64,000 nt of DNA from Podarcis liolepis. Lineage: Eukaryota. Below the pieces are notes generated by a model. That model was given only the letters and a program-made list of their open reading frames with translations. It was not told the origin of the DNA and searched no databases. The position numbers were made by a program, and so were the translations under genes. Below are positions 16,062 to 61,180 of the stretch, in pieces. The stretch lies in the NCBI GenBank assembly GCA_965112155.1, contig OZ218102.1; one strand, written 5' to 3'. Positions within the stretch are counted from its first letter, which is position 1. Every line of letters begins with the position of its first letter.

Positions 16062-17279
16062 TACAAGGAAAGAGAAGGTAGAAAAAGTCAAACAGGAGCA
16101 ATAGTGGTAACAACAAAATAACAAATAGTAGCCCCTTATTTTTAAAAAAGAAATGTATCTCAAATGCTTGAAATATCAGTAGCTACATTGTGTTCTTTAC
16201 AAAACTGACAAATAAGTATCAATTCCAAAGTAAAACACTTTTTAAAATTTAAGTTGTTTCTATACCACATCATTACCAAGGTCTCTGCTAGTAATACGTT
16301 CTTTTAGTCAAAGTTAAATGTATATGCTTTTATTTTTTGAAAAAGTGCCATGTTTGAGGGTGAATGTTCTTTTCTGGAGAGAACAGACTCCTGCTTCCAT
16401 AACCAGATTTAGATGTGAAGTACAGAACCATTGCAACCTTTTGTCTCAGCCATGCCGTTGTGCGTGAAAGAGCCATGTGACCTTTGACATCCATAAAACA
16501 GACATCTGAAGAATGTCATCTCCAATAGCAGGAGACCATGTAGAGGAGGGGATTGGTTAATACAAAGTGTCCATCTGTCAGCACCCCAGAATGTTCAGAA
16601 GGGGGAATGAGCACATTTTCCTGCCCGCGGCTGAATAAAGCCTAGTCCTTCTTTACACTGTTCTGCAATGTGTGCTGTTGAAATTAATTACAGTAAGCCT
16701 GCAACTTACACACATTTAGCATGCACCCATTCAACTTCATGCACTTGGCAAAAAAAATTAAAAGGAGAAAGAAAGGTGGCGGAAATGGGGCAGGTGTCTG
16801 GGGAAAAAGACTTTGGCAATTCCAGTCGCCATCAATTCCATTGTCTTTTGACTACGTGCAATTTTTGCTTTAGGCGCGATCCCTGGAACATAACCTGCAT
16901 GTAAATTGCAGACATTCTGCAATTCATACTCTGAAGGTTGCATCTAAGTTCTACTCAAAGTCGACTCATTGAAGTGAATGGACCTAAGAAAGACATATCC
17001 AGCAATTTCAATGGGTCTGATATGAGGAGCTCCAACACTGACTGGATACAAACCTGAAGGTTTAGAAGATTTTCACTGTTGTGTTTTCATTATGTTTTTA
17101 GGCCACAAACTTTTCACAACATGGATTGCAATGATTTTAAGAACACTTAACTCTGTGCTGCATTGGGCACTTACCAGGTTGCAACCTATTGATACATACC
17201 TGAGAATGAGTCCTGTTGCATCTCGTGGGACTTGATTCTGAATAAGCAAACACAGGCTTGAGAGACAGGACTAGGACCT

Positions 17280-17712
17280 TGTCAGGGAACTGACATCGGA
17301 ACGAGAGGCGAAGGGGAGGCTCCCAGATGATGCTGGCGAAGGACCCAGCAGCAGGGGGAGAAACAGCTCAGTAGAGGGGGAAGCCAATCAGCGCAACACC
17401 AGGGATAAAGGGGGACAGATGGGGGAATTGGAAAGAGGGCTCCAGGACTCTTCACTGGACATCAGTGAGGAGAGCCCAGGTCCTCCGCTACCCACGCCTT
17501 CCCTGAGCAGAAGACTCCCGCGCAGTGAGAGGAGGAGACTGGGTGTCAAACAACTTTTATGTTGGAAGAGGTTCAAGAAACACCCACTGACGGATTCTGC
17601 CAGTGACTGAGGCAGCCACGATGAGAAGGGGCTGTGCAGTCAGAAAGGTTTAACAAGGCAAATTAACCGAGAAAGGCACCAGTTTACGCACGAGTAACTC
17701 ATACCTATTACA
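17280..17712 (+). mobile_element. Solo LTR, 433 bp
   Basis: TGT...ACA termini; 5-bp TSD GACCT at 17275-17279 and 17713-17717; inserted into the head of a CORE-SINE. Confidence 0.85.
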
Positions 17713-17870
17713 GACCTGGAAGATCAGAGCTCAAATCCACACTCAGCTATGAAATTTGCTGTGTGACCTTGGGCAGTCACTGTCTTTCAACCTAACCTAC
17801 CTCAGAGGGTTGTGGCGAGGATAAAATGGGAAGCAGGGAGTGGCATACATTCTACCTTGATATTTGGAAT
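17713..17870 (+). mobile_element. MIR-like CORE-SINE fragment, interrupted by the solo LTR
   Basis: CORE-like TGTGTGACCTTGGGCAGTCAC...ACCTACCTCAGAGGGTTGTGGCGAGGATAAAATG. Confidence 0.65.
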
Positions 17871-26300: not shown

Positions 26301-27136
26301 GGTTTTCTGGCCCAATTGGAGACGGTGCCTCGTGTGATTGGGCAGATGGTCATCCAGGCATTGGCTAAAAGGGGTGACTTCCTCTTGAGCCAGCACATCG
26401 TTGGATTCCCAGCATTGGCACAGCAATCATGGCTGCTGAGCTGCTGTTCCACTTGGCCTTAACATGGTGTAGCTGTACTCTGCAAGCTACTTTACCCATA
26501 GTGCCAGGATAAAGTCAGGGACAAAGGCTTGGAAAAGACCCTTAGGCAGCAATGTACAGAATGTTAATCGGCACAGCTAGGAATAGCGGCGCTTTCCTGC
26601 AGTACTGCTCCTTGATCATTAAGGATGTGTCGGGAACATTTGCCCAGTGGATGAGGATTTCTCACTGTCAGTGAAAATCGATCCATAGGATTGGGCTACC
26701 TACCACCAGCCTGTCCATGAAAACTGTAACATCCCAGATATCACCGTGCAAGGCCAGTTGGCATTAAATTCCGGTGCGGTAATAGGCAGCATTGTAGTTC
26801 GGCACCTATAATCCCATGTTTAGATATCCGCATTTCCCCTGCAAACAATCTGAATAATGAATCAAATGGTCTCAGCAGTAATTGGATCTTTTTCTGTGTA
26901 ATTAGCCATTTCCCACCCTGCATTATAATTTTAAGTAGTATGGCTGAATTGAGCAACTCGCGAAATGAGTCATTATGTGAAGGCTTTTAGGGAAGTTATT
27001 TCTGGAGGTCTTGCTATGGAGGCTAAAATCTGTCTAAATTAAAAGAACTGACAAGCAGCAATCAAGGCTGCAAAATAAAGGTGCTCAGTAAGCAGCCCTA
27101 TTACAATCAGAAAGAAAGGGGAAGCAGATCCCTGTC

Positions 27137-27396
27137 NNNNNNNNNNNNNNNNNNNNNNNNNNNNNNNNNNNNNNNNNNNNNNNNNNNNNNNNNNNNNNNN
27201 NNNNNNNNNNNNNNNNNNNNNNNNNNNNNNNNNNNNNNNNNNNNNNNNNNNNNNNNNNNNNNNNNNNNNNNNNNNNNNNNNNNNNNNNNNNNNNNNNNNN
27301 NNNNNNNNNNNNNNNNNNNNNNNNNNNNNNNNNNNNNNNNNNNNNNNNNNNNNNNNNNNNNNNNNNNNNNNNNNNNNNNNNNNNNNNNNNNNNNNN
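27137..27396. other. Assembly gap (N run)
   Basis: 260 consecutive N. Confidence 0.99.
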
Positions 27397-28899
27397 TATA
27401 GTGCCTTCTTTTCCTGAACTATTGACCCACTGGTACATAAAAAAGATTATTTTTATGACTAATATAACTTGTGCAGATAGGTTTAACTCTTTCTTGATTG
27501 GTCATTGCACTCCTATTTATTTATTTATTTATCTAGTGAAAAACAACAACCAGATATTGTGAATAATGGCTTTAACAACCGTTCATGATTTGCATGAATC
27601 ATCTCTTTAGGGGATATTTATTTCACGTGTTGAATGCCTAAAATAAGTTTTTAAAATGTAACAATCCTTATGCAGGCTTATTTATTACCTCTTTTTAAAA
27701 TTCTCCCATTTCTCCTGAGGAGCAAAAGAGAAGGTGTATAGTTATACACCCTTCCCTTTTATACTTATATCAACCAGTGATATGGTAAATTTTGAAGTGC
27801 AAGAGCTCATCACGACAGTTTCCACTAAGTCAAGCGTACCCCACCAGCTATGGCTGGCAGCCTATTGAAGACTCAAGAAACCTGCTTTTTTTGCTGCCTG
27901 AGTTAGCAAAAAACAAGACACACAAAAACTAAACATTCTGTTTGATTCTGGGAAAAGGTCTTAAACTTCCCTGCAAGGAGCATTTAAATTCTGGGTTCAA
28001 CCACAGCTTTCTTTTCACTGACTCACTCGTAAGGTCTCTCTATGCGTGATGAACCAAGGGTCAAACTGTTTGATCATGGGAAATCAAAATAACATAGCAA
28101 TCAATGAAATGAACATATTCTAGTTTTTATTTATAGATTCATATTTAGCATTGCAGTTTGCATTCTGCTTTTTACCAACTTTTAAAAAGAGATTAAATGC
28201 ATTAGTCAATCAAAAAACAACAACAACACAAAAAAAACAAAAACCCAAGGAGCCTATAATGGCACTTTGAGAGGATGGACAATTATTAATTAGGTAACAC
28301 CTATCATTCTGCTATTGCTGCTACTTGTGCAATAGATGCATTTTACACTAAAGAGTATACAGTGTGGCGTTATTCTAGTATTATGAAGAGGAGAAATGGG
28401 AGTAGCAGTAGTTTTTAATGCCTAGGTTATTGCCAAATCTGCAAACACTCCTTTTGCAGATGCAAGGGTGAACAAAAGATGAATGGCCCACTCTGTCAGC
28501 GAGTACTTTTTGCTAATTGATCGCATTTCCATTTTAATTAAAAAGCCTGCACTCAGAGTGGGTGGGATCACAAGATGTCATCAGCTCTGTTTTCCTTAAT
28601 CATGGAAGGTGAATGGAAAATTTGAAGTGCCTGCAATCTCACCGGCTCTGAATACAGCTTGTTGCTTTGACCACTGCTTGTCCCACCTATATAGAGTGGC
28701 ATTCTGAATGATAAGAGGTGGAATGTGTTTTAATGTGAAATAAACACTAGCCAGCTGATTACTTTCTTTTACTGAGCATCCCAGCTGGTCTCTAAGGCAT
28801 ATCTTTAGAAAGCACATCCTAGCATCATATCCCCCCCTCCCCACTTTACCTGAGCAACCCACAGGTCTACCAGCAAGGCCAATATCACTATATCTAGAT

Positions 28900-30735: not shown

Positions 30736-31420
30736 GAGAGCCAGTGTGGTGTAGTGGTTAAGAGCGATAGACTTGTAATCTGGTGAACCGGGTTCACGTC
30801 TCCACTCCTCCAGATGCAGCTGCTGGGTGACCTTGGGCTGGTCACACTTCTTTGAAGTCTCTCAGCCTCACTCACCTCACAGAGTGTTTGTTGTGGCGGA
30901 GGAAGGGAAAGGAGTTTGTGAGCTGCTTTGAGACTCCTTAAAGGTAAAGGGACCCCTGACCATTAGGTCCATTCGTGACCGACTCTGGGGTTGTGGCGCT
31001 CATCTCGCTTTATTGGCCAAGGGAGCTGGCGTACAGCTTCCAGGTCATGTGGCCAGCATGACTAAGCTGCTTCCGGCGAACCAGAGCAGCGCACAGACAT
31101 AACATTTACCTTCTGGCCGGAGCAGTACCTATTTATCTACTTGTACTGCATGCTTTCAAACTGCTAGGTTGGCAGGAGCAGGGACCGAGCAACGGGAGCT
31201 CACCCTGTCACGGGGATTCGAACCGACGACCTTCTGATCGGCAAGTCCTAGACTCTGTGGTTTAACCCACAGTGCCACCCGTGTCCTCTTGAGACTCCTT
31301 AGGGTATTGATAAAGCAGGATATCAAATCCAAACAACTCCTCCTCCTCCTCCTCCTCCTCCTCCTCCTCCTCCTCCTCTTCTTCTTCTTCTTCTTCTTCT
31401 TCTTCTTCTTCTTCTTCTTC
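30736..31420 (+). mobile_element. CORE-SINE (Squam3/Ther1-derived type) with (TCC)n(TTC)n tail, interrupted by a Sauria SINE
   Basis: tRNA-like head GCCAGTGTGGTGTAGTGGTTAAGAG; CORE GGGTGACCTTGGGC; microsatellite tail about 31337-31420. Confidence 0.75.
30941..31288 (-). mobile_element. Sauria SINE
   Basis: 13-bp TSD TTGAGACTCCTTA (30928-30940, 31289-31301); box B GGTTCGAATCCC on minus strand; ACCTTT-type tail. Confidence 0.85.
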
Positions 31421-39617: not shown

Positions 39618-41830
39618 ATAGAATCATAGAATCAAAGAGTTGGAAGGGACCCCAAGGGTCATCTAGTCCAACCCCCTGTAGTGCAGGAATCTTAGCTAAA
39701 GCATCCATGATAGACGGCCATACAACCTCTGCTCAAAAACCTCCAAGGAGGGACAGTCCATTCATTATGAGCTCTGGCTTGCCTGACCTCCCTGCAACTG
39801 TTGGTTACTCATGTATACTCTTCCTTCATGATTTCCTCTTCCTTCCATTTTTTATACATGCCCTTCTTGAACCTGTAAGCTCCTTATGCAGCCACTTATT
39901 ATGCTCTTATTATGTTGCTGTAATTGTCTGCATCTGTGACTTCAATATTTCACCTATAAGAAACTCCCATCCATTTTGGACTCCCTTCTCTTTAAAAATT
40001 ACTGACCATGGGATCTCACCTTTACGCTTTTCAAAATCAGCCTTCTTAAAGTCCAGAGTGCATGTCTGACTACACTCAGCTTTCCCTTGCCTCTGTATCA
40101 TGAAATGCAAGAGGACACAATCACTTCCTCCCAAGGTTTACAGTAATTCCACTCTGTGGATCAGTTCCTCCTTGTTGGTGAGGACCAAGTACAAGATAGA
40201 TGATCCCCTTGTTGCTTGTTTGGTAATCTGCTCCAGGAAGGCAACATTCAAATCTTCAGCCTGGCTTAGCGGTCTACAGCAGACACCCATAGTAAGGTCA
40301 CTGTTTGTTCCATCTCCTACAATTTTTACCTATATACTCTCAATCTGCCTTTCATGCTCCTGGTCATGGAGCTCTTCACAAGTGTACACAACCTTTACAT
40401 ACAATGCTGCTACTCCTTCCTTCCTGTTTAGTCTATTCCTTTTGAACAGGTTATACCCCTCAATTTCTACATTCCAGTCATGAGTCTTATCCTACCAGGT
40501 TTCAGCAATGCCTATTAGGTCATATTTGCCATCCTGTATTAAAGAGCTCACATTCATCTTGCTTGTTGCCCATATTCTGGGCATTAGCATAGAAACAAGT
40601 GAAACCATGACTCATTCCCTCTAGCTGCTTCCTTCTTGTAGTTTTCTGTCCTTTGGCAGGTTTCTGGAGCATCCCCTCAATTTTGTGTGCATCAATGAGG
40701 CTATTATCCCCAGTACAGATGTTTCCCTGTACTGTCTCCCTGCCTCTCAGAATTTAATTTAAAGATTTCCTGATCAGGTTTGCAAGACTCTTAGCAAACA
40801 CATTCTTGTCAACTGCTGTTGCGAGAAGTCCTTCCTCAAGGAAGCAGAGACCATGGGCTGATAAGCCAAACCTTTTGTGACACCACCTGCACAGCCAGTG
40901 ATTTACTTCCAGTATTTTCCTCTTTTCCTGGTCCATGACCTTCAACAGGAAAGAGTGGTGAGAAAGCCATGTGTGCCTCAAGGCTCTTCAGATTCCTGCC
41001 CAGAGCCTCACAGTCTGTTGTTATACATTGAAAGCTGTGTGTGGCAGTACAGTTGGACCCATGTGAATAATAATGAGGAGGTTGTGGTCAGTGGGCTTTT
41101 TAAGACTTGGCAACTTCTCTGTCACAATGTGAATCTTTGCACCTGGAGGACAGCACACCTCCTGGGACATCCTATTAGCCTCCTCTGTCCCCTACAGTAG
41201 GGAGTCACCTACCACCACCACCACCTGTGTCTTCCTCTGGGGAGTGACAGGAATCATTCTGTGCCTCTTGCCTTCCACAGCCACCTCAGGGTGTGCTGAG
41301 GTCTGCAACTGCTGCCCTTGCTCCTCTGGCCCAGAATTGATATCTGAGGTGAGGGCATGGAATCAGTTTTGCAGCTCCAATGACATAGCATGGCTTCTGT
41401 GTGTCACTTTCCTCCAGGGTTTTGTCTCCTACACTGGGTGATCTTCTCCCTCTCTAGGGGCATCCTCGCCCTGCATTGCTGTTCCAGGGCAGTCTACTCT
41501 GCTCTACTGAGAAATTCCTCATCTTGTCCAATAGCTCGAAGTGGGGATAGGTGGGCCTCAAGTTACTGTACCTTCCAACAAGTTGCTCTTCCAACAAGGC
41601 AACCAGCTTGCACTTGCTGTAGGTGAAGTTTTGCACATTCTCAAGAAGGAAGACAAACATGGCACCGGTGTTGCAAGTAACTACAGGAGGTCCCTTGCTG
41701 TCCATGTCTCTTGGTCCTATGTACACCATGAGACAGCACTCCAGGCCTTCTCCTCGAACTTCCCTGCTAAACATCCTTGCCAATGCCCCTGTTCACAAGT
41801 CTTGGTCACAAGCTCCCAGAGGCTAAATAG
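39618..41830 (-). mobile_element. Degraded CR1 LINE: ORF1 (Zn-finger/zipper and esterase), ORF2 endonuclease region and 3' tail; RT region absent
   Basis: Minus-strand peptides VVTCNTGAMF..SKCKLVALLEEQ, KNVFAKSLANLIRKSLN and GSDCVLLHF..LDFKKADFEK; (ATTCTATG)n tail at about 39618. Confidence 0.75.
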
Positions 41831-42840: not shown

Positions 42841-43382
42841 GGTAATATAGTATATACCGGTAGTTCAGATACTGATGCAAAGCAGTACATGCTGTTATGG
42901 TCCGTGCTGCCCCCTTATGTTCATTACACCCATGCCCACTTTGAGCATCTTGAAAGGGTTGACATGTGTATATCTCAAGCATAAATTGAAATCACCTGCT
43001 TAATACTGGTTGTGAAGCCAACCCTAAGATTAAAGCTTTATAGCACTTTTGGAAAGCATGGCATCAGCATTGTTGGCAGGCATGCACTTAGGTAGCTGTC
43101 TGTAGTGCCATGCCACGTTGACAGGGCAACTGGCATGCCTGGACATTTCATGGGAAATCTAAAAAAGCAGAAGGGTGGCAAAGTCCACCATGCTCAGTTT
43201 CTGCCCAGCAAACCTTCATCTGTTTCATCCATGGCTACCTTCCTTACAGAACCGATAATTCTGCATGGTTTGGTTGAACCCATCTCATGTTACCTGGTAT
43301 GTGCCTTACAAATTCCTCCGAAACAAGGTGGGCGTTCACATACTTTCTTCTTTTATTTAGACACACACACAAACACTGTGTG

Positions 43383-43733
43383 ATGGCCTGGGATTCCGAT
43401 TCGGAGGATGAAACAGAGGAATCCCAGCCTGCACAAGAGTCCCCGCCTCCAGGGCCGGCTGAACTGGGGCAAGGCCTAGATGCTGAAGAACCTGCACCTG
43501 TGGCAGTGCATCAGGAGCTGGCCCCAGGTGAAACCCTTCTGGCCCCAGAGAGGCTTGACGACTCAGTGGCCACAGGTGAGCCTCCTCCAGGGCCCAGTAA
43601 CCCTTCGGCCTCTCCTGATCTGCAGAGGCTTAGGGCAGAGAGGCGAAGGGAACTGGTTGCCCCCAGGAGGAGTGCTCGCCTTAAGGCCAGAGGAGGCGGG
43701 GCTCCTGGGGGCCGGGACCGCCCCTGGCCTTAG
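43383..43733 (+). CDS. U3-encoded 116-aa acidic/Pro-rich then basic ORF; same sequence as the Pol C-terminal tail except one residue
   Basis: MAWDSDSEDETEE...PRRSARLKARGG...RPWP*; ATG in GTGATGG context; independent translation unproven. Confidence 0.4.
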   Translation: MAWDSDSEDETEESQPAQESPPPGPAELGQGLDAEEPAPVAVHQELAPGETLLAPERLDDSVATGEPPPGPSNPSASPDLQRLRAERRRELVAPRRSARLKARGGGAPGGRDRPWP

Positions 43734-43738
43734 AAGAG

Positions 43739-43780
43739 GACAAAAGCCCAGTCAGCCCGGCCCCAGGTTGCGGGAGCAAC
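43739..43780 (+). promoter_or_regulatory. Putative TATA-like box (GACAAAAG) and transcript 5' end/self-primer GCGGGAGCAA
   Basis: Related solo LTR at 60401 has GATAAAAG...GTGGGAGCAAC with similar spacing; GC-box-like elements upstream. Confidence 0.55.
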
Positions 43781-44002
43781 GTCATTGTTGGCTTCGGACC
43801 TCCCTGTGTTCCTGATTCCTGCTCGGCCTCCTGTTCCTGACTATCCGGTACTCCTGTTCCCGACCATCCGGTGTTCCTGTTCCCTGCACAGCCTCCTGTT
43901 CCAGCGTACCTGTTCCCCGCCCGGCTCTCTGCCTCGGACATTGCCCCTCTTCGTGTGGACTCTACTACGCCCAAGGTACCTTACCCCCGGGACCAGCACA
44001 GT

Positions 44003-44012
44003 TTGCTCCCGC
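44003..44012 (+). promoter_or_regulatory. Primer-binding site, self-priming type
   Basis: TTGCTCCCGC, 2 nt after the LTR end, is the exact reverse complement of LTR 43770-43779; no TGG tRNA-type PBS. Confidence 0.75.
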
Positions 44013-44063
44013 CACACCCGCACTCCCCCTTCATAGGGGTGCGTTCGGGAAGAGCCAGAGGCC

Positions 44064-44960
44064 ATGGCTGAACAGGCGGCTACACTGGTGGCTTTGGCCC
44101 AGGAGAACCAGGCCTTGACTCACACCGTGCAGCAGCTCAGCGACGCGGTTGTGGCACTTCAGCAACGCTTGGAAGCCCTACCGGCTCCTGGGGCCGACGC
44201 CCCGGCTCCGGGCAAGTACCCAGTGGCTTTGCCTGAGAAATTTGATGGAGCCCCGGCCAGCTTTCCCATGTTCCTGGCCCAGGCCAAGCTGTATATTCAG
44301 GGGCGAGCCCGGAACTTTCCTGACGACCGCACCAAGGTGCACTTTTTGATTAGTTTGTTAAAGGACCAGGCGGCCAAGTGGGCGTTGCCGCTACTCAGGC
44401 AAGACTCCCCCTTGCTGGCAGACTATACGGGGTTTTGCAATCATTTGGAGGCCGCGTTCGGCAACCCCCAGAAAGAGAGTCAAGCCAACCGGGCGATTCG
44501 GCGTTTGAAACAGGGCAAGTCCACGGTGGCCACATATACCACGGAGTTTCGGCTGTTGGCACACGACTTGACCTGGAATGACTCGGCACTGCGGGACCAG
44601 TATCTCGAAGGGCTTTCGGACGAGGTACTGGACCAGTTGGCCACAATGGAACGCCCCACCACGCTGGACACTCTCATTCAACGGAGTCTACAAATAGACG
44701 ACCGGTTGGAGGATCGTCGTCAGGCCCGGGGTCGCCGACACTCCCAGTTCACGGCACCAGCTTTTTCCGGCAGCCCCACGGTCACAACTGATTTAACGGA
44801 GGAGCCTATGCAGCTCGGGGCAGTGCGGCCACGCCTTTCCCCCGCAGAGAAGGCGCGGCGTCGGGAGGGAAATCTCTGTCTTTACTGTGGCGGAAGTGGA
44901 CACTTCGCTCGGTCCTGCCCTGAGAAACGCCAGCCGCAGGGAAACCGCCAACCCCAGTAG
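44064..44960 (+). CDS. gag: Gag (PEG10/RTL-like capsid and CCHC nucleocapsid), 298 aa
   Basis: N-terminal coiled coil, LPEKFDG, EEPMQLG, zinc knuckle CLYCGGSGHFARSC. Confidence 0.93.
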   Translation: MAEQAATLVALAQENQALTHTVQQLSDAVVALQQRLEALPAPGADAPAPGKYPVALPEKFDGAPASFPMFLAQAKLYIQGRARNFPDDRTKVHFLISLLKDQAAKWALPLLRQDSPLLADYTGFCNHLEAAFGNPQKESQANRAIRRLKQGKSTVATYTTEFRLLAHDLTWNDSALRDQYLEGLSDEVLDQLATMERPTTLDTLIQRSLQIDDRLEDRRQARGRRHSQFTAPAFSGSPTVTTDLTEEPMQLGAVRPRLSPAEKARRREGNLCLYCGGSGHFARSCPEKRQPQGNRQPQ

Positions 44961-45006
44961 CTGATGGCCCTAGCTACCGGGGGTCCCAAACCGTACAGAA
45001 TGGGCC
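44939..45006 (+). promoter_or_regulatory. -1 programmed ribosomal frameshift signal (G GGA AAC plus H-type pseudoknot)
   Basis: Heptamer 44939-44945 is in gag phase and the -1 frame is open into pol; stem 1 ACCCCAGTAGCT/AGCTACCGGGGGT; stem 2 GGCCC (44966-44970)/GGGCC (45002-45006). Confidence 0.8.
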
Positions 45007-48000
45007 CGCACCAATGGACTTGCAACATCTTATGGTTTCGGTACGTTTATACCCTCCAGGGGGGCCCTGGATCCTCACCCATGCTTTGGTAGATTCAGGG
45101 GCGACCCGCTCCTATATGGACGCTGCTTTTGCCACCCGTCATCAGGTGCCACTTCGGAACAAGCCAGTACCGATCCAGGTGGAAGCGATTGACGGACGAC
45201 TTCTGCGTTCAGGTGCTGTTACTCAGGAGACCCAGCCCCTGGTCCTGTGTCTCCAGCAGCACCGGGAGTTGCGAACTTTGGACATTGCTTCTATGCCCCG
45301 CTTCCCCCTGGTGCTCGGGATGGACTGGCTGGAAGCCCACAACGTTCAGATTGACTGGGTCAAACGGACCGTGCACTTCCCAGACCCATGTTCCCATGCT
45401 CAATCCGGAACGCTGGCGGCCGCGCCCTCAGAGGAGGCAGCACCCACGCTCCCAGCCGTGTACCAGGACTACCAGGACGTGTTCGAGGAACGGGGGGCAG
45501 ACCAGCTGCCGCCGCATCGGCCTTTTGACTGCGGCATAGACCTCCAACCCGGAGCGCCTTTACCAGTGAGTCGCTTATATTCCCTAACAGAGCCAGAGCG
45601 CGAGGCTTTGCAGGACTTCTTGCGCAAGAACCTGGAGCGTGGGTTCATTAGGCCTTCCACCTCGCCTACCGCGGCACCAGTGCTTTTCGTTAAGAAGAAA
45701 TGTGGGGAACTCCGCCCTTGCCATGATTACCGAGCCCTGAACAAAATTACCGTCCCAGACCGGTACCCCTTACCCCTTATCTCGGAGCTGCTGGAGCGGG
45801 TGCAAGGGGCACAGGTGTTCACCAAGCTGGACCTCCGAGGGGCCTACAACTTGATTCGGATCCGAGCCGGGGATGAGTGGAAGACAGCGTTTGGGACCCG
45901 GTACGGGCAGTTCGAATATTTGGTTATGCCTTTCGGTTTGTGCAACGCGCCTGCTGTGTTCCAACGCTACATCAACCACGTGTTTCAGGACTTGTTAGAC
46001 AAGTACGTGGTGGTGTATTTGGATGACATACTGATTTACTCCCGTGACCCGGCTCACCATGAGGGACATGTCCGGACCGTGCTGCAGCGCTTGCGTGAGC
46101 ACCGTTTGTACGCAAAGCTCATCAAGTGCGAGTTCCATCAGCGGACTGTGGACTTCCTTGGTCACCGGCTCTCTCCAGATGGGGTGCAAATGGACCCGGG
46201 GAAGGTGACAGCGGTTCGAGAATGGGCGGCACCCCGGAACCGCAAGGACCTACAGCGTTTCCTGGGGTTCGCCAATTACTACCGGACCTTCATCGCTGAT
46301 TATGCTCATCGCACCACCCCGTTGACCCGGCTACTGCGCCCAAAGACGCCGTTTTCCTGGGACAAGGAGGCAGAGGAGGCGTTTCAGGGGTTGAAGGCCT
46401 GTTTCCAGAGGGCACCAATCTTACAACATCCTGACCCCTCTCGACCTTTTGTGGTGGAGACCGACGCCTCCAGTACGGCTCTCGGTGCCGTCTTGTCTCA
46501 ACAGATTGGGCCTGAAGCGCCACTCTTACCCTGTGCCTTCTATTCCCGCCAGCTCCTACCAGCGGAGCGTAACTATACTGTGTGGGAGCGGGAACTACTG
46601 GCCATCAAGGTAGCCTTTGAGGTCTGGCGCCACCATCTTGAGGGGGCACGACATCCGGTGGAGGTGAGAACCGACCACCGGAACCTGGAGTACCTCCAGA
46701 CCACCCGCAAGCTGAACCAAAGACAGATCCGGTGGGCGTTGTTCTTTTCCCGGTTCCAGTTCCGGATCCGCTACATCCCTAGCTCTCAGAATCAGAAGGC
46801 GGATGCCCTGTCCCGGAAACCTGAAGACAACGCAGACACGGTACAGCAAGCAGAACCCACCACGATCCTACCTCCGGCTGCATTCCTGGCCACCCAGGAG
46901 GCGCAGCCACTGCAGGTTCGGGTGCGGGAACAGCAGCGGGTCGACGCTTGGGCCCAGGATCGGCTCCGGGAGCTGGCTGAAGGGTCCAGCCCACAGTATC
47001 CGGGACTGGTCCTGCATCAGGGCCTTCTGCTGCATCACGGTCGTCTGTACATCCCGCCAGGGCCACTACGGCTGGAGGTTCTCCGGATGGCCCATGATGC
47101 CCCAGCAGCGGGGCACTTTGGACGGTATCGGACCACCCATCTGGTCAGTCGAGAGTTTTGGTGGCCCCGCCTGAAGGCTGACGTGGCTCGCTACGTTGCT
47201 GGTTGTGATGTCTGCCGGCGCGCCAAGGGACCTACCGGGCGACCCCCCGGCCTACTTCAGCCATTGCCAGTTCCACCGCGTCCTTGGCACACGGTTTCAT
47301 TGGACTTTATAGTGGACTTACCCTCGTCTCGTGGCTGTACCTGCCTTCTGGTTTTCTCCGACCATTTCACCAAGATGGTGCACTGCGCTCCCTGTCCATC
47401 TGTACCCACAGCCAAGGAAACTGCTCAGCTGTACCTTCAGCATGTCTTCCGCTTGCATGGCCTACCTGAGCGTGTGGTGTCCGACCGGGGCGTTCAGTTC
47501 ACATCCCGGTTCTGGCGAGCATTACACCAGACCCTCGGGACAGAGGTCTGCCTCTCGTCAGCCTACCACCCACAGACCGATGGCCAGACGGAACGGGCGA
47601 ACGCGGTGCTGGAGCAGTACCTCCGGTGTTACTGCAGTTACCAGCAGGATGACTGGGTCGACCACCTGGCATTGGCAGAGTTCGCCTATAACAACGCGGT
47701 GAATGCGTCCACCCAGCAGACCCCGTTCCAGGCCAGTTATGGTTATCATCCACGGCTGTTTCCAGAGGTGCTGCCGGCGTCCGCAGTCCCGGCGGTGACG
47801 GAGTGGCTTCAAGAGCTCCAGTCCCAGCAACAGCTTTTGGTGGAGCAACTGCACCAGGCCAAGGAAGCGTACAAAGCCCAGGCCGACCGCCACCGCCAGG
47901 TGGGGCCGGAACTTCGCGTTGGTGACCTGGTTTGGCTCTCCACTCGCCACCTCCACCCCTCTCGACCTTCGCGGAAGTTGGACGCCCGCTTCACCGGCCC

Positions 48001-48736
48001 GTTCCCTATCGTAGACCAAGTCTCTCCTGTGGCATTTCGTCTCCGGTTACCCGCAACACTGAAGGTTCACCCGGTCTTCCACAGGTCCCTTTTGAGTCCG
48101 GTGGCCCCACCCGACGAGTTCCACCCGAACCGTCCCCGACCGCAGCCAGTGTTGGTTCGGGGAGAGCCTGAGTACGAGGTGGAACGCATCCTGGACTCCC
48201 GATACCGCAGGGGAAAGCTGCAGTATCTCATTGACTGGAAGGGGTACGGACTGGAGGACCGTTCCTGGGAACCAGCGGCCAACATCCACGCACCTGCCTG
48301 CCTCCGAGAGTTCCATGCGACGTACCCCGGCAAGCCGGGTCCGGACCCTCGGTTGAGGGGGGGGCCTGGGAGGGGGGATGGTGTGATGGCCTGGGATTCC
48401 GATTCGGAGGATGAAACAGAGGAATCCCAGCCTGCACAAGAGTCCCCGCCTCCAGGGCCGGCTGAACTGGGGCAAGGCCTAGATGCTGAAGAACCTGCAC
48501 CTGTGGCAGTGCATCAGGAGCTGGCCCCAGGTGAAACCCTTCTGGCCCCAGAGAGGCTTGACGACTCAGTGGCCACAGGTGAGCCTCCTCCAGGGCCCAG
48601 TAACCCTTCGACCTCTCCTGATCTGCAGAGGCTTAGGGCAGAGAGGCGAAGGGAACTGGTTGCCCCCAGGAGGAGTGCTCGCCTTAAGGCCAGAGGAGGC
48701 GGGGCTCCTGGGGGCCGGGACCGCCCCTGGCCTTAG
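44939..48736 (+). CDS. pol: Pol: protease, RT, RNase H, integrase, chromodomain and LTR-encoded tail; expressed as Gag-Pol by frameshift (first ATG at 45014)
   Basis: ALVDSGA (DSG 45092-45100), YLDD (46016-46027), VETDAS, HHCC (HDAPAAGH..CDVC), SLDFI/SDRG/GQTER, GPF motif, chromodomain EYEVERILDSR..YLIDWKGY..SWEP; no stop codons. Confidence 0.95.
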   Translation, partial: GKPPTPVADGPSYRGSQTVQNGPAPMDLQHLMVSVRLYPPGGPWILTHALVDSGATRSYMDAAFATRHQVPLRNKPVPIQVEAIDGRLLRSGAVTQETQPLVLCLQQHRELRTLDIASMPRFPLVLGMDWLEAHNVQIDWVKRTVHFPDPCSHAQSGTLAAAPSEEAAPTLPAVYQDYQDVFEERGADQLPPHRPFDCGIDLQPGAPLPVSRLYSLTEPEREALQDFLRKNLERGFIRPSTSPTAAPVLFVKKKCGELRPCHDYRALNKITVPDRYPLPLISELLERVQGAQVFTKLDLRGAYNLIRIRAGDEWKTAFGTRYGQFEYLVMPFGLCNAPAVFQRYINHVFQDLLDKYVVVYLDDILIYSRDPAHHEGHVRTVLQRLREHRLYAKLIKCEFHQRTVDFLGHRLSPDGVQMDPGKVTAVREWAAPRNRKDLQRFLGFANYYRTFIADYAHRTTPLTRLLRPKTPFSWDKEAEEAFQGLKACFQRAPILQHPDPSRPFVVETDASSTALGAVLSQQIGPEAPLLPCAFYSRQLLPAERNYTVWERELLAIKVAFEVWRHHLEGARHPVEVRTDHRNLEYLQTTRKLNQRQIRWALFFSRFQFRIRYIPSSQNQKADALSRKPEDNADTVQQAEPTTILPPAAFLATQEAQPLQVRVREQQRVDAWAQDRLRELAEGSSPQYPGLVLHQGLLLHHGRLYIPPGPLRLEVLRMAHDAPAAGHFGRYRTTHLVSREFWWPRLKADVARYVAGCDVCRRAKGPTGRPPGLLQPLPVPPRPWHTVSLDFIVDLPSSRGCTCLLVFSDHFTKMVHCAPCPSVPTAKETAQLYLQHVFRLHGLPERVVSDRGVQFTSRFWRALHQTLGTEVCLSSAYHPQTDGQTERANAVLEQYLRCYCSYQQDDWVDHLALAEFAYNNAVNASTQQTPFQASYGYHPRLFPEVLPASAVPAVTEWLQELQSQQQLLVEQLHQAKEAYKAQADRHRQVGPELRVGDLVWLSTRHLHPSRPSRKLDARFTGPFPIVDQVSPVAFRLRLPATLKVHPVFHRSLLSPVAPPDEFHPNRPRPQPVLVRGEPEYEVERILDSRYRRGKLQYLIDWKGYGLEDRSWEPAANIHAPACLREFHATYPGKPGPDPRLRGGPGRGDGVMAWDSDSEDETEESQPAQESPPPGPAELGQGLDAEEPAPVAVHQELAPGETLLAPERLDDSVATGEPPPGPSNPSTSPDLQRLRAERRRELVAPRRSARLKARGGGAPGGRDRPWP
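48355..48381 (+). promoter_or_regulatory. Polypurine tract
   Basis: GAGGGGGGGGCCTGGGAGGGGGGATGG immediately before the 3' LTR. Confidence 0.8.
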
Positions 48737-49003
48737 AAGAGGACAAAAGCCCAGTCAGCCCGGCCCCAGGTTGCGGGAGCAACGTCGTTGTTGGCTTCGG
48801 ACCTCCCTGTGTTCCTGATTCCTGCTCGGCCTCCTGTTCCTGACTATCCGGTACTCCTGTTCCCGACCATCCGGTGTTCCTGTTCCCTGCACAGCCTCCT
48901 GTTCCAGCGTACCTGTTCCCCGCCCGGCTCTCTGCCTCGGACATTGCCCCTCTTCGTGTGGACTCTACTACGCCCAAGGTACCTTACCCCCGGGACCAGC
49001 ACA
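48382..49003 (+). repeat. 3' LTR
   Basis: Direct repeat of 43379-44000 (offset 5003); differences at 43608/48611 and 43784/48787. Confidence 0.95.
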
Positions 49004-49290: not shown

Positions 49291-49646
49291 AAAGGTAAAT
49301 GTAAATGTAAAGGGACCCCTGACCGTTGGGTCCAGTCGCGGACAACTCTGGGGTTGTGGCACTCATCTCGCTTTATTGGCCGAGGGAGCCGGCATACAGC
49401 TTCTGGGTCATGTGGCCAGCATGACTAAGCCGCTTCTGGCGAACCAGAGCAGCACATGGAAACACCATTTACCTTCCCGCTGGAAGTATTTATCTACTTG
49501 CACTTTGACATGCTTTCGAACTGCTAGGTTGGCAGGAGCTGGGACCGAGCAACGGGAGTTCACCCCGTTGCGGGGATTCGAACCACTGACCTTCCTATCA
49601 GCAAGCGCAGGCTCTGTGGATTAGACCACAGCGCCACCCACATCCC
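49291..49646 (-). mobile_element. Sauria SINE
   Basis: Homologous along its length to 30941-31288. Confidence 0.85.
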
Positions 49647-57630: not shown

Positions 57631-59372
57631 TGGCCCTCTGCCTGGTTCCCTAGAACCTCACTTCTTCCTATCAGACTTCCTATCAGTCCCCCCCCCCCGC
57701 CCCACTGTACCTCTCAGTGCTGTTCTGTACATCCTGGAAAACCATACACTTTGCCTGCAGGAGGTCCCAGATCTAATCCCCAGCATCTCCAGCTCTAGGA
57801 ATGTCTCCTGTCTGAAAACCTAGTGAGCGTCTGCCAATCAATGCAGACGATGCTGAGCTAGATGGAGAAATTGTCCAAACTCAGTATAAGGCAGGTTCTC
57901 TAAGCACTGCAAAGATCCCTGTCCACTGTCTTTTGCACTGGACTTGCGGCAATCAACAAAGCAAAAAGGTCCTAAATGCATGTTCTGCTTTTCCCAAGAC
58001 ATACTGAGTTCTATGTTCGATAGTTTGTTCCCTCATGTCACATGTCCAAATGAAAGTACTTCTACCTGGCTCAGATCAGTTGCATGAGGTTGATTTGAGA
58101 ATCAACTGTTATGGATTTCTGAGAAATATAAACACTTAGTTTGACATTTGTATCTCAAAGAGGTTTCCCTAAGCAGTAGCTCATCCGCTGGTCAAATCTA
58201 GACCTACTTAATTTAGTAAAGAGAAGGAGCCACATGTAGCACTTTCGTGGGATATGAAGTTACCCTGTGCTTGGCTAATTTGTTGGGATAGCTTCATATA
58301 TTCAAAATTACTGTGGATGTTAGCTTTTAGCATGCTAGGCAGTGCCTTTGAGATTCCATCTTCAGCAGCAATGTGATGATTGGCTCAATTTGTACGGGGA
58401 GTAATGTTTGAGCAAAACCTAATCTATTTTTCCTGCCAGTCACCAGAGTAAACAATCTACTCTTTGGAAAGCATGTACATCACTTGAAACTATATGCACT
58501 TTAAAAGCACAGTATTTGTAGCTGGAGCAGTAGCATAAAGTTGTTTGCCTCTGATCCAATTGGCACCAGCAATAAAGTGGATTTTAGTACATCTCTGGCA
58601 AACCCTTGGTAGCACATCTGGGAAGTGTGGACATTGCTCATTAGAAGAGTTTTTCCACCTAATAACATGCCAGAATCATGACAAAAATACTTATACTTTA
58701 TGTCAATCATTTTTCTTTGCCAGTTTAAACATATACCCTTCTGGGAATAATTCTGATCCATTTATGGACCTGAAATTGAATGAATGGACAGAAGTAAAAG
58801 CACTTAGATGAAACTCTAGAATTGTGGGGTGAGAATGAAAAGACTTTCTGTATATGCTTCAGTTGTTGGAAAACTCAGAGTCAGATGACAGCTTGGGTGA
58901 GACCAGGCATTCTGACCCTTCAATCCCAGTGGGGTATTCCCTGTCCATCATACTCACAATCTGTTTGTTTATTTCCACAAAACCACTCAAAGTGGCTCAC
59001 AACATCTAAAACAATATTAAATATCTATCTAGATCTAGATCTATAATCTATATCTATATCATCACAATGTCAATAAAGACAGAGATTAAATCCATCCATT
59101 ATATAAAATATTATATAAAGCAATACAAATAAGCTAACCTAGCGTAACTATTTTAGACTAAAGACAGAAATGACCAAGTCCTGGCTGAGAAAGATTTCAC
59201 AAGGGGTTAAAATGTTGGTGACTAATTGTCTGTAAAGAAGATAGTTGGTTCAATGTTGTGTTTTATGAATTAAATTAGTTGTCAAAGACAGATGTTTGAT
59301 ATGGGGAAAAATGCCTCCTACCCCAAGTTGTAGTGATGGCCACCAACTTGAATGGCTTTGAATGGGTTAGGC

Positions 59373-60378
59373 CAGTGTTTCCCAACCGGTGTTCCGCGGC
59401 ACACTAGTGTGCCGTGGAACTTTGCCTTGTGTTCCGTGGAGGCGGGCGAGGCGGGCGAGTCGGGCGGTGAGAGGCGGGGCGGCGGTGGCGAGCACACGCG
59501 GGGCGGCAAGCGAGCGAGCTCCCACATCCCATCGCCGCTCGCTACTGGGCCTGCGCATCCGCTCGCTACTGGGCCTGCCCCAGGAGGTGGGGTTGCGGGC
59601 ATCACGCCCTTCCCCATGTGAGCGGGGAATCCCATCCGCCCCCACGTGAGCGGGGAATCCCATCTCAGCCCCCGCGAGAGCAGGGGAATCCCATCCGGCC
59701 ACGCCTCCTGGCCAGCCAATCGGCTGGCTGGAGGGGGCGTGGCTTGCCCTTTTTAGGGCCGGAGCGGAGGGGGCTCGCCCTCTCTTCTCCGGCTAGCCCC
59801 ATCGCCGCTCGCTACATCCTATCACCGCTCGCTACTGGGCCTGCGCATGCTCGGCGAGCACACGCGGGGTGGCGAGCGAGCGAGCTCCCACATCCGACGG
59901 CACCAAGCAGGGGCCCTTGGCCGTGCCGGTGCCCACCGTGCCCGCCTCCGCCCAGGAGGGCGGCAAGCAGCCACCGCCACCACCACCCCCGCCGCTGCCC
60001 GGCAACCGCGCCGCCGCCCCCGGCTCCCCGCGGCGGGTGATCGTGCAGGCTTCGACGGGCGAGCTGCGAGCTCGGCGGGCAGCGCCTCCGTCCGCAGCGC
60101 CCGCCTCGCGGCTCTCATTCCCTGCCCCTGCCAAAGCTCACTCAGCCAAGCCGCGCTCTCCTTCCTGCCTCGCTTTGCTGCCTCCTCCCCCCCCCCACCC
60201 CCAAAGCTTGGAGGTTCCCCGGCAAGGGGGAGGAAAAAAAATTGAAAACTTTCACTTTCGTGCGTCCCTCCCGGCGTGACGCTGCGCGCTGACGTCACGG
60301 GGCTGTAATGGTGGTGTGCCGCGAGATTTTTTTCATCAAACAAGTGTGCCTTTGCCCAAAAAAGGTTGGGAAACACTG
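59373..60378. mobile_element. Non-autonomous hAT element (1006 bp) with GC/CpG-rich interior
   Basis: 15-bp perfect TIR CAGTGTTTCCCAACC; 8-bp TSD GGTTAGGC (59365-59372, 60379-60386). Confidence 0.93.
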
Positions 60379-60400
60379 GGTTAGGCCATCAGTGTCTACT

Positions 60401-61017
60401 TGTGCTGGGCCTGGGGGTAACCCATGCAACGCGGTCCAGGACCAGTCCAGAATCCAAAGGTTCCACTAGGAGACAGTCCGACAGGGCCAAGGCAGGACAC
60501 AAGGCAGGAAACCAGGCAAAGACAGGTACAGGATCTCAGGAAGGATCTAGCATACAGCAATGTTGCTCCCACAACCTGGGGCGGGGCCCAACAGCCTTTT
60601 ATCTTTGTCGGGGTAGTGGCCGGTCCTGATCCCCCGGTGACTCACCACCCTGTTTTGCCCGAAGGCGAGCACTCCTCCTGCGAGTACTCAGGTCTCTCCT
60701 TCTCTCTGCAGCTTGGGAGACGTCGGTGGGTTACTAGACCCAGGGGCTGCCTCAGCCTCCCCGACCAAACCGGTAGTGGAGCATCTGTAAGCGATGGCCC
60801 AGCTGAAGGCAATGAGGTAATCCCCGCATCTGGAGCCAGGGCAGGCTCAGGCCCCTGACTCAGCTCAGCTGGTGTTTGTTGCAGGGGAACCTGTGCAGAC
60901 TGGGACTCTTCAGGATCAAGCCCCAGACTTGGTTCAGGTGATGCCTGAGGCAAAGGATCTGGTGCAGACTGAGTCTCCTCTGGTTCCGAGTCCGAGCCCA
61001 AGTCCCAGGCCATCACA
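60401..61017 (-). mobile_element. Solo LTR (617 bp) related to the full-length element
   Basis: Minus strand TGTGATGGCCTGGGA...TTACCCCCAGGCCCAGCACA; TSD CTACT (60396-60400, 61018-61022). Confidence 0.92.
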
Positions 61018-61048: not shown

Positions 61049-61180
61049 AATCATAGAATCAAAGAGTTGGAAGAGACCACACGGTTCATCTAGTCCAACC
61101 CTCTGCAATGCAGGAATCTTTTGCCCGACATAGAACTCAAACCCATGACCTTCAGATTAAGGGTCTCGTGCTCTACCGAG
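61049..61180 (-). mobile_element. SINE with tRNA-Lys(CTT)-derived head and CR1 3' tail
   Basis: TCGGTAGAGCACGAGACCCTTAATCTGAAGGTCATGGGTTTGAG resembles tRNA-Lys; followed by GGTTGGACTAGATG..TTCCAAC..GATTCTATGATT. Confidence 0.7.

Follow-up and report, generated by a model that had tools for sequence, protein, structure and literature searches.

The closest described systems are the Tf1/sushi chromoviruses, whose vertebrate V-clade includes Sushi-ichi and Amn (classification in PMC6317226). The lizard families described here (A, B and C) have in common with them gag followed by the order PR-RT-RH-IN-SH3-chromodomain, TG..CA LTRs, a 5-bp duplication and a PBS that can pair with the LTR of the same element. 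However, most homologues end near the chromodomain while the lizard families have long, partly LTR-encoded tails, and the Y-W-Y cage of a group I chromodomain is complete in family A but not in families B and C. A pol that reaches into the 3' LTR, carrying a targeting part, is described for group A of the plant centromeric CRM elements (PMC3059260, PMC3605345), and this extension of the frame is common to CRM and the lizard families. In CRM group A, however, a CR motif replaces the chromodomain, which lizard family B keeps upstream of the polypurine tract (PPT); CRM group A uses tRNA-Met priming whereas family B appears to prime itself; and the hosts are plants rather than vertebrates. The lizard element is not a CRM.

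Two further comparisons concern host tethering. According to a review and related reports (PMC9987994, PMC6877644, PMC10854676), a TND-interacting motif (TIM) consists of a short helix, an acidic linker of 8-16 residues and FxGF, the last being essential in all known LEDGF/HRP2 partners (PMC9987994). The TIMs of MLL1, JPO2, IWS1 and JIL-1 share with the lizard motifs an aromatic helix, an acidic Ser/Thr-rich linker within that length range, FxGF and a disordered context, but they belong to host proteins, whereas the lizard TIM-like pair lies in tandem on a retrotransposon integrase. Lentiviral integrases are tethered by LEDGF/p75, and the lizard integrase would bias its integration through that host domain too; HIV-1 integrase, however, offers a pre-arranged folded LEDGF site, unlike an unstructured FxGF motif (PMC9987994, PMC10854676).

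Our literature search, with most subscription papers, supplements and repeat databases outside its scope, turned up no description of pol overlapping the LTR in vertebrate chromoviruses and, within the same limits, no FxGF motif described in retrotransposon integrases. To our knowledge, little is known about insertion-site choice by vertebrate Gypsy elements. For the locus studied here we favor, with a probability of roughly 0.6, the reading that a solo LTR is what remains of a chromovirus of the Tf1/sushi type, with a pol that terminates within the 3' LTR, and that its open frame is a selected integrase tail, which likely docks the integration complex on host chromatin.

The solo LTR and its open frame

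The window, a stretch of 64,000 nucleotides from Podarcis liolepis, contains a 433-bp family B LTR (TG..CA) at 17280-17712, between identical GACCT duplications at 17275-17279 and 17713-17717; the solo LTR, its frame and the family A element described below are all on the + strand. It is likely a relic left by LTR-LTR recombination. A first-pass annotation had proposed a frame open from LTR base 2, and we reproduced both the frame and its peptide: 109 codons are open from 17281 to a TGA at 17608-17610. Its head lacks a start codon, the one internal Met is codon 47, and a Pfam scan of the frame found no domain. In 5,000 shuffles of the LTR, 109 or more open codons occurred in some frame of 26%, and in the same phase from the LTR start in 0.5%. 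Taken alone, the solo frame is modest evidence for coding.

Family B solo-type candidates numbered 3,509 at first look across the 1.57-Gb genome, whose nearest protein matches come from Podarcis. The best 30 are 97-100% alike, and the frame persists in every one at 109-110 codons; an exact 5-bp duplication flanks 27, and 26 have LTRs of 436-437 bp rather than 433, a 3-nt difference that stays in frame. All 30 are solo-type while only about seven internal regions match at 88% or more, which suggests a very high solo-to-full-length ratio in this subfamily. The solo copy itself is likely inert and probably makes no protein.

Full-length parents and the three families

The parents of the solo LTR were sought with an unbiased junction pattern, which found 1,002 family B PPT-LTR junctions genome-wide, with in-phase spacing in 99 of 100 among the matches listed. 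At the first 30 of the 1,002 loci the LTR frame has at least 98 codons in 29, and in 25 the frame stays open without a break from chromodomain to PPT and on into LTR base 2; pol is not stopped upstream of the LTR, and the suggested continuity of pol with the LTR frame was borne out. A first search, which required a long purine run, had returned 10 loci rather than 1,002, with unbroken read-through in 1 of 11 junctions; the pol end 16 codons into the LTR that it suggested was overturned by the unbiased pattern.

Six elements are nearest the solo (LTRs 91-97% identical). In four of them pol enters the LTR in phase: L133, whose LTRs match the solo at 96-97% identity, and L135, L137 and L138. The other two carry a frameshift after the chromodomain and before the PPT, and all six lack an intact pol. 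Four younger sister elements (L139, L140, L142 and L146) with LTR pairs 100% identical each have a single pol frame of 1,327-1,374 codons that ends inside the 3' LTR. Pfam places PR-RT-RH-IN-SH3-chromodomain in this order in family B Pol, the C-terminal chromodomain lying upstream of the PPT. Family B junctions among the matches listed are scattered along C1 and C2. The older internal region of family B was matched at 41 places, 21 of them on one 40-Mb contig (G000:C20), which makes up 2.5% of the genome and is possibly a W or another low-recombination chromosome. At several loci (L133:1-1640 on the element strand; L061, L069, L070) elements of the three families adjoin or nest in one another. 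A search of sequencing runs returned half or more of the query words in 14 of 24 rows, with no RNA runs among the rows listed.

The window also holds a full-length family A chromovirus at 43379-49003, with 622-bp LTRs (43379-44000 and 48382-49003), a CACTG duplication, gag at 44037-44960 and pol at 44924-48736. Its 3' LTR begins at 48382 and the pol codons within it run from 48383, so that here too they start at LTR base 2, as had been claimed, and 117 residues (48383-48736) are LTR-encoded in an acidic, Pro-rich and Arg-rich tail. The R-R-S-A-R-L word at the end of this tail (48660-48700) is reminiscent of the HMGN nucleosome acidic-patch motif. Many family A copies have a 1,564-codon frame, compared with 1,270 in the window, which points to a subfamily whose gag and pol share a single frame. 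The two LTRs lack similarity in DNA, as first described, their best blastn match being 13 nt; to call them unrelated is right at this level, but the families group together in the RT tree described below. The proposed match in charge pattern holds for the last ~55 residues (acidic, Pro-rich, basic) and not for the first 50, where net charge per 20 residues is near neutral in the solo (-2 to +1) and -8 to -4 in family A. The tail peptides align weakly over 31 residues (SW 55, a score reached by 42 of 2,000 shuffles).

Elsewhere in the window, 58 other frames were scanned with Pfam, and the family A gag alone scored above cut-off. An AT-rich kilobase (27001-28000; GC 0.27) has long frames on both strands, a GC-rich island (59300-61000; 0.57-0.61) has many long frames and zero Pfam matches, and dispersed repeat pairs 86-90% alike (30939-31245 with 49302-49605; 39622-39693 with 61049-61120) are probably SINE/LINE fragments.

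Reading into the LTR is found in all three families. Family C has 1,804 junctions, LTRs of 753-792 bp and 208-221 pol codons within the LTR, and pol enters the LTR in frame at 9 of 10 full-length loci; family A has 305 junctions and a full LTR tail in 52 of the 58 loci with a chromodomain match. Many LTR pairs in families A, B and C are 99-100% alike, and the families are abundant and young. In an RT/RH tree of 73 rows, made by a quick method and midpoint-rooted without named reference elements or outgroup, SH-aLRT support was 100 for B+C, 91 for A+B+C and 95 for their clustering with fish and frog elements. In most homologues from fish, fungi and metagenomes, no more than a few dozen residues follow the chromodomain, while the lizard families extend about 130-370 residues past it, 100-220 of these LTR-encoded; some fungal-type homologue rows have long tails, and frog rows resemble chimeric gene models. 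Because the three families group together, a single shared beginning is more probable than a feature of Gypsy elements at large, and since most homologues also end soon after the chromodomain, we assign the LTR-encoded Pol tail to a single lizard chromovirus lineage, in which it is probably one inherited trait. The view that such tails characterize several Gypsy families is supported for the three families of one lizard lineage sampled here, and probably does not hold for Gypsy in general.

Searches with the tail itself returned little: 2 matches only with a tail profile against 1.84 billion representative proteins, and no usable match in the Atlas. A query from outside for further chromovirus families recovered only family A among the loci examined. 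A 148-residue ENA product (P0127; E 3.5e-4) has the same VREL...LLCW...PL-DS layout and is perhaps a more distant solo LTR of the lineage. Family C tails (L194-L203) end in an Arg run and [KR]-A-R-[IV]-L-S-W, which aligns with the family B K-[QE]-L-L-C-W as a motif common to both. Head-to-tail arrays sharing LTRs occur in family C (G000:C1:139.35-139.44 Mb, 5.8-kb spacing) and family A (G000:C2:104.475-104.485 Mb, 5.0 kb), their junction spacing being about the element length minus one LTR, and family C junctions also crowd the initial 2 Mb of C1.

The integrase tail and its candidate tethering motifs

Under the favored reading, Pol would be translated through the PPT into the LTR, and protease would then free an integrase with a long disordered tail. 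From the SH3 domain on, its C-terminal order would be a chromodomain with a partly lost cage, two TIM-like motifs, a Gly linker coded by the PPT, a disordered spacer of variable length, and two LTR-coded helices, one rich in Arg and one with LLCW. LTR-LTR recombination would later have left the solo copy, with a frame that has no start codon at its head. In the predicted fold of the tail (mean pLDDT 58) the chromodomain is confident and the remainder disordered except for low-confidence helices, at both motifs (residues 56-64 and 94-97; pLDDT about 45-70) and, twice, in the LTR-coded end.

The two motifs sit in the parent integrase upstream of the LTR, and are absent from the window's solo LTR. 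The family B segment that joins the chromodomain to the PPT contains two repeats, each made of aromatic-x(2-4)-F, an acidic Ser/Thr-rich linker (8 residues in one, 8-9 in the other) and [FLM]-x-G-F. Both are present in 27 of the first 30 family B loci and are conserved across subfamilies while the spacer between them varies. The second motif ends in FxGF in all 11 aligned copies; the first does so in five, on the solo's side of family B, and as L/M-x-G-F in the other six, which include the youngest subfamilies. Family C has one such motif, whose 8-residue linker is Ser/Thr-rich but not acidic, and the family A LTR tail has no FxGF motif. The family B pair fits the published LEDGF/HRP2-binding pattern. 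A TIM-type pattern matched families B and C only among 125,578 residues of 106 homologues, and arises by chance in 0.08-0.14% of tail shuffles; as family B itself had served to define the pattern, and family C was seen after it was framed, only the family C match is independent. PDB sequence and profile searches with the motif region gave no match to solved TIM peptides (FTO appeared at E about 1). The chromodomain cage is eroded in the same families: the third residue is lost in family B, the first as well in the solo's subfamily, and the first and second in family C.

Judging from these sequences, the motifs may tether the integrase to LEDGF/HRP2 on transcribed chromatin, and we put the chance that they bind the IBD/TND domain of either protein slightly below even. 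Genes for both host domains are present in the genome. A predicted complex of the Podarcis LEDGF IBD with the first motif, made without alignments or folded controls, scored 0.29 (mark 0.34) and speaks neither for nor against binding; chromosome-1 positions of families with and without the motifs, compared by eye with 14 family A sites, gave no clear difference. For the basic LTR-coded end, the odds are about even that it would serve as a nuclear import signal, a grip on the nucleosome or DNA, or both. More tentatively, this lineage may have let its chromodomain cage decay and come to mimic host TIMs to ride LEDGF/HRP2, converging on the lentiviral cofactor through a different interface, with an LTR that would be promoter, self-primer and integrase-module gene in one.

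The strongest alternative, which we consider unlikely but deserving of real weight, is that the tail is a genuine protein with another job, such as import only, particle assembly, RNA binding or stability control, and that the FxGF-like motifs bind a partner other than a TND. The Arg-rich end is compatible with an import signal, the family A tail exists without FxGF motifs, and Pfam, profile and Atlas searches gave the tail no family or structure match. However, helix, 8-9-residue linker and FxGF occur twice in family B and once in C, invariant despite the varying spacer, and directly behind a chromodomain whose cage is missing residues.

Selection on the LTR frame

That the LTR frame encodes protein is supported by its divergence. 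Among nine hand-chosen family B copies, one or two per subfamily, dN/dS was 0.13 at the integrase end, 0.10 in the chromodomain, 0.28 in the motif region and 0.32 in the LTR frame, and pN was below pS in 36 of 36 pairs, which are non-independent. In shifted frames the ratio was 1.36-1.89. Pairwise values for the LTR frame were 0.15-0.41 in family B (14 of 15 pairs computable), 0.24-0.52 in C and 0.42-0.72 in A. In family B the frame is retained across LTRs only 67-76% identical; its length varies from 99 to 127 codons by whole codons, and the stretch after the stop stays at 97-106 nt in the ten copies with an unbroken frame. Conservation is best at window 17476-17607, which covers a Pro/Ser-rich stretch, the Arg-rich helix, K-[QE]-L-L-C-W and a P-L-[TS]-D-S end; dN/dS is 0.16 over the last 42 columns. 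These data support the LTR frame being the C-terminal end of pol, under purifying selection.

The same codons also carry signals for the nucleic acid. An 11-nt site at 17586-17596, within the last codons, is complementary to the parents' PBS. It lies 24 nt ahead of the stop, and in each of 12 family B elements examined 9-11 of the 11 bases that follow the 5' LTR can pair with it; seven pair perfectly, and 10 different PBS words are represented, indicating covariation. Two of two family C elements have complementarity of 10 and 11 nt, eight rows with a mis-called LTR end being left out. Complementarity between the PBS and the LTR of one and the same element is the self-priming signature of Tf1/sushi elements (PMC6317226, PMC4600332), and we infer self-priming for family B. 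The site would also mark the U3/R border, with the RNA start at 17586; because of that placement, the frame would cover all of U3, ending about 24 nt into R, and its last eight codons would lie over the primer. Part of their conservation is therefore at the RNA level.

Could DNA or RNA constraint from promoter, self-primer and att site explain the whole frame, the protein being a tolerated by-product? The covarying self-primer site in the last codons, VREL codons that overlap the LTR tip and a TTTTATG word 31 nt upstream of the inferred RNA start in the solo all speak for it, but the last 42 columns diverge by 0.45 at third positions and 0.15 at second positions, indels preserve frame, and LLCW, with synonymous variation among copies, is kept where the TATA-like word is not. 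The latter rules out a TATA-box account of LLCW. Codon-position divergence and the LLCW comparison largely refute this explanation, and we regard it as very unlikely.

Neutral read-through, with a lost stop and a purine-rich LTR that happens to stay open in young copies, could draw on the 26% of shuffles, the close likeness of the best 30 copies and the fish relatives whose frames reach a stop a few codons beyond the chromodomain, but it is refuted by the dN/dS on the LTR frame and across families, with a frame kept over strongly diverged LTRs, and is highly improbable. LTR accessory genes such as Nef and Sag offer a last comparison, to which we give next to no weight: thousands of solo-type candidates might suit a separate gene expressed from an RNA that is spliced or driven by the LTR, solo LTRs included, but the frame is continuous with pol, its head has no Met, the codon-47 Met is missing in most relatives, and the RNA would start near the end of the frame.

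We thus return to the reading of the frame as a selected integrase tail. That the LTR encodes this tail explains why solo LTRs by the thousand resemble small genes. The canonical chromodomain of family A, set against the eroded cages and FxGF motifs of families B and C, provides a natural comparison. Should LEDGF/HRP2 be bound by the motifs, a retrotransposon integrase would mimic the motifs of a transcription-elongation hub. Even without that link, the plant CRM design of an LTR-coded integrase tail is extended, with codon-level evidence, to a vertebrate lineage.
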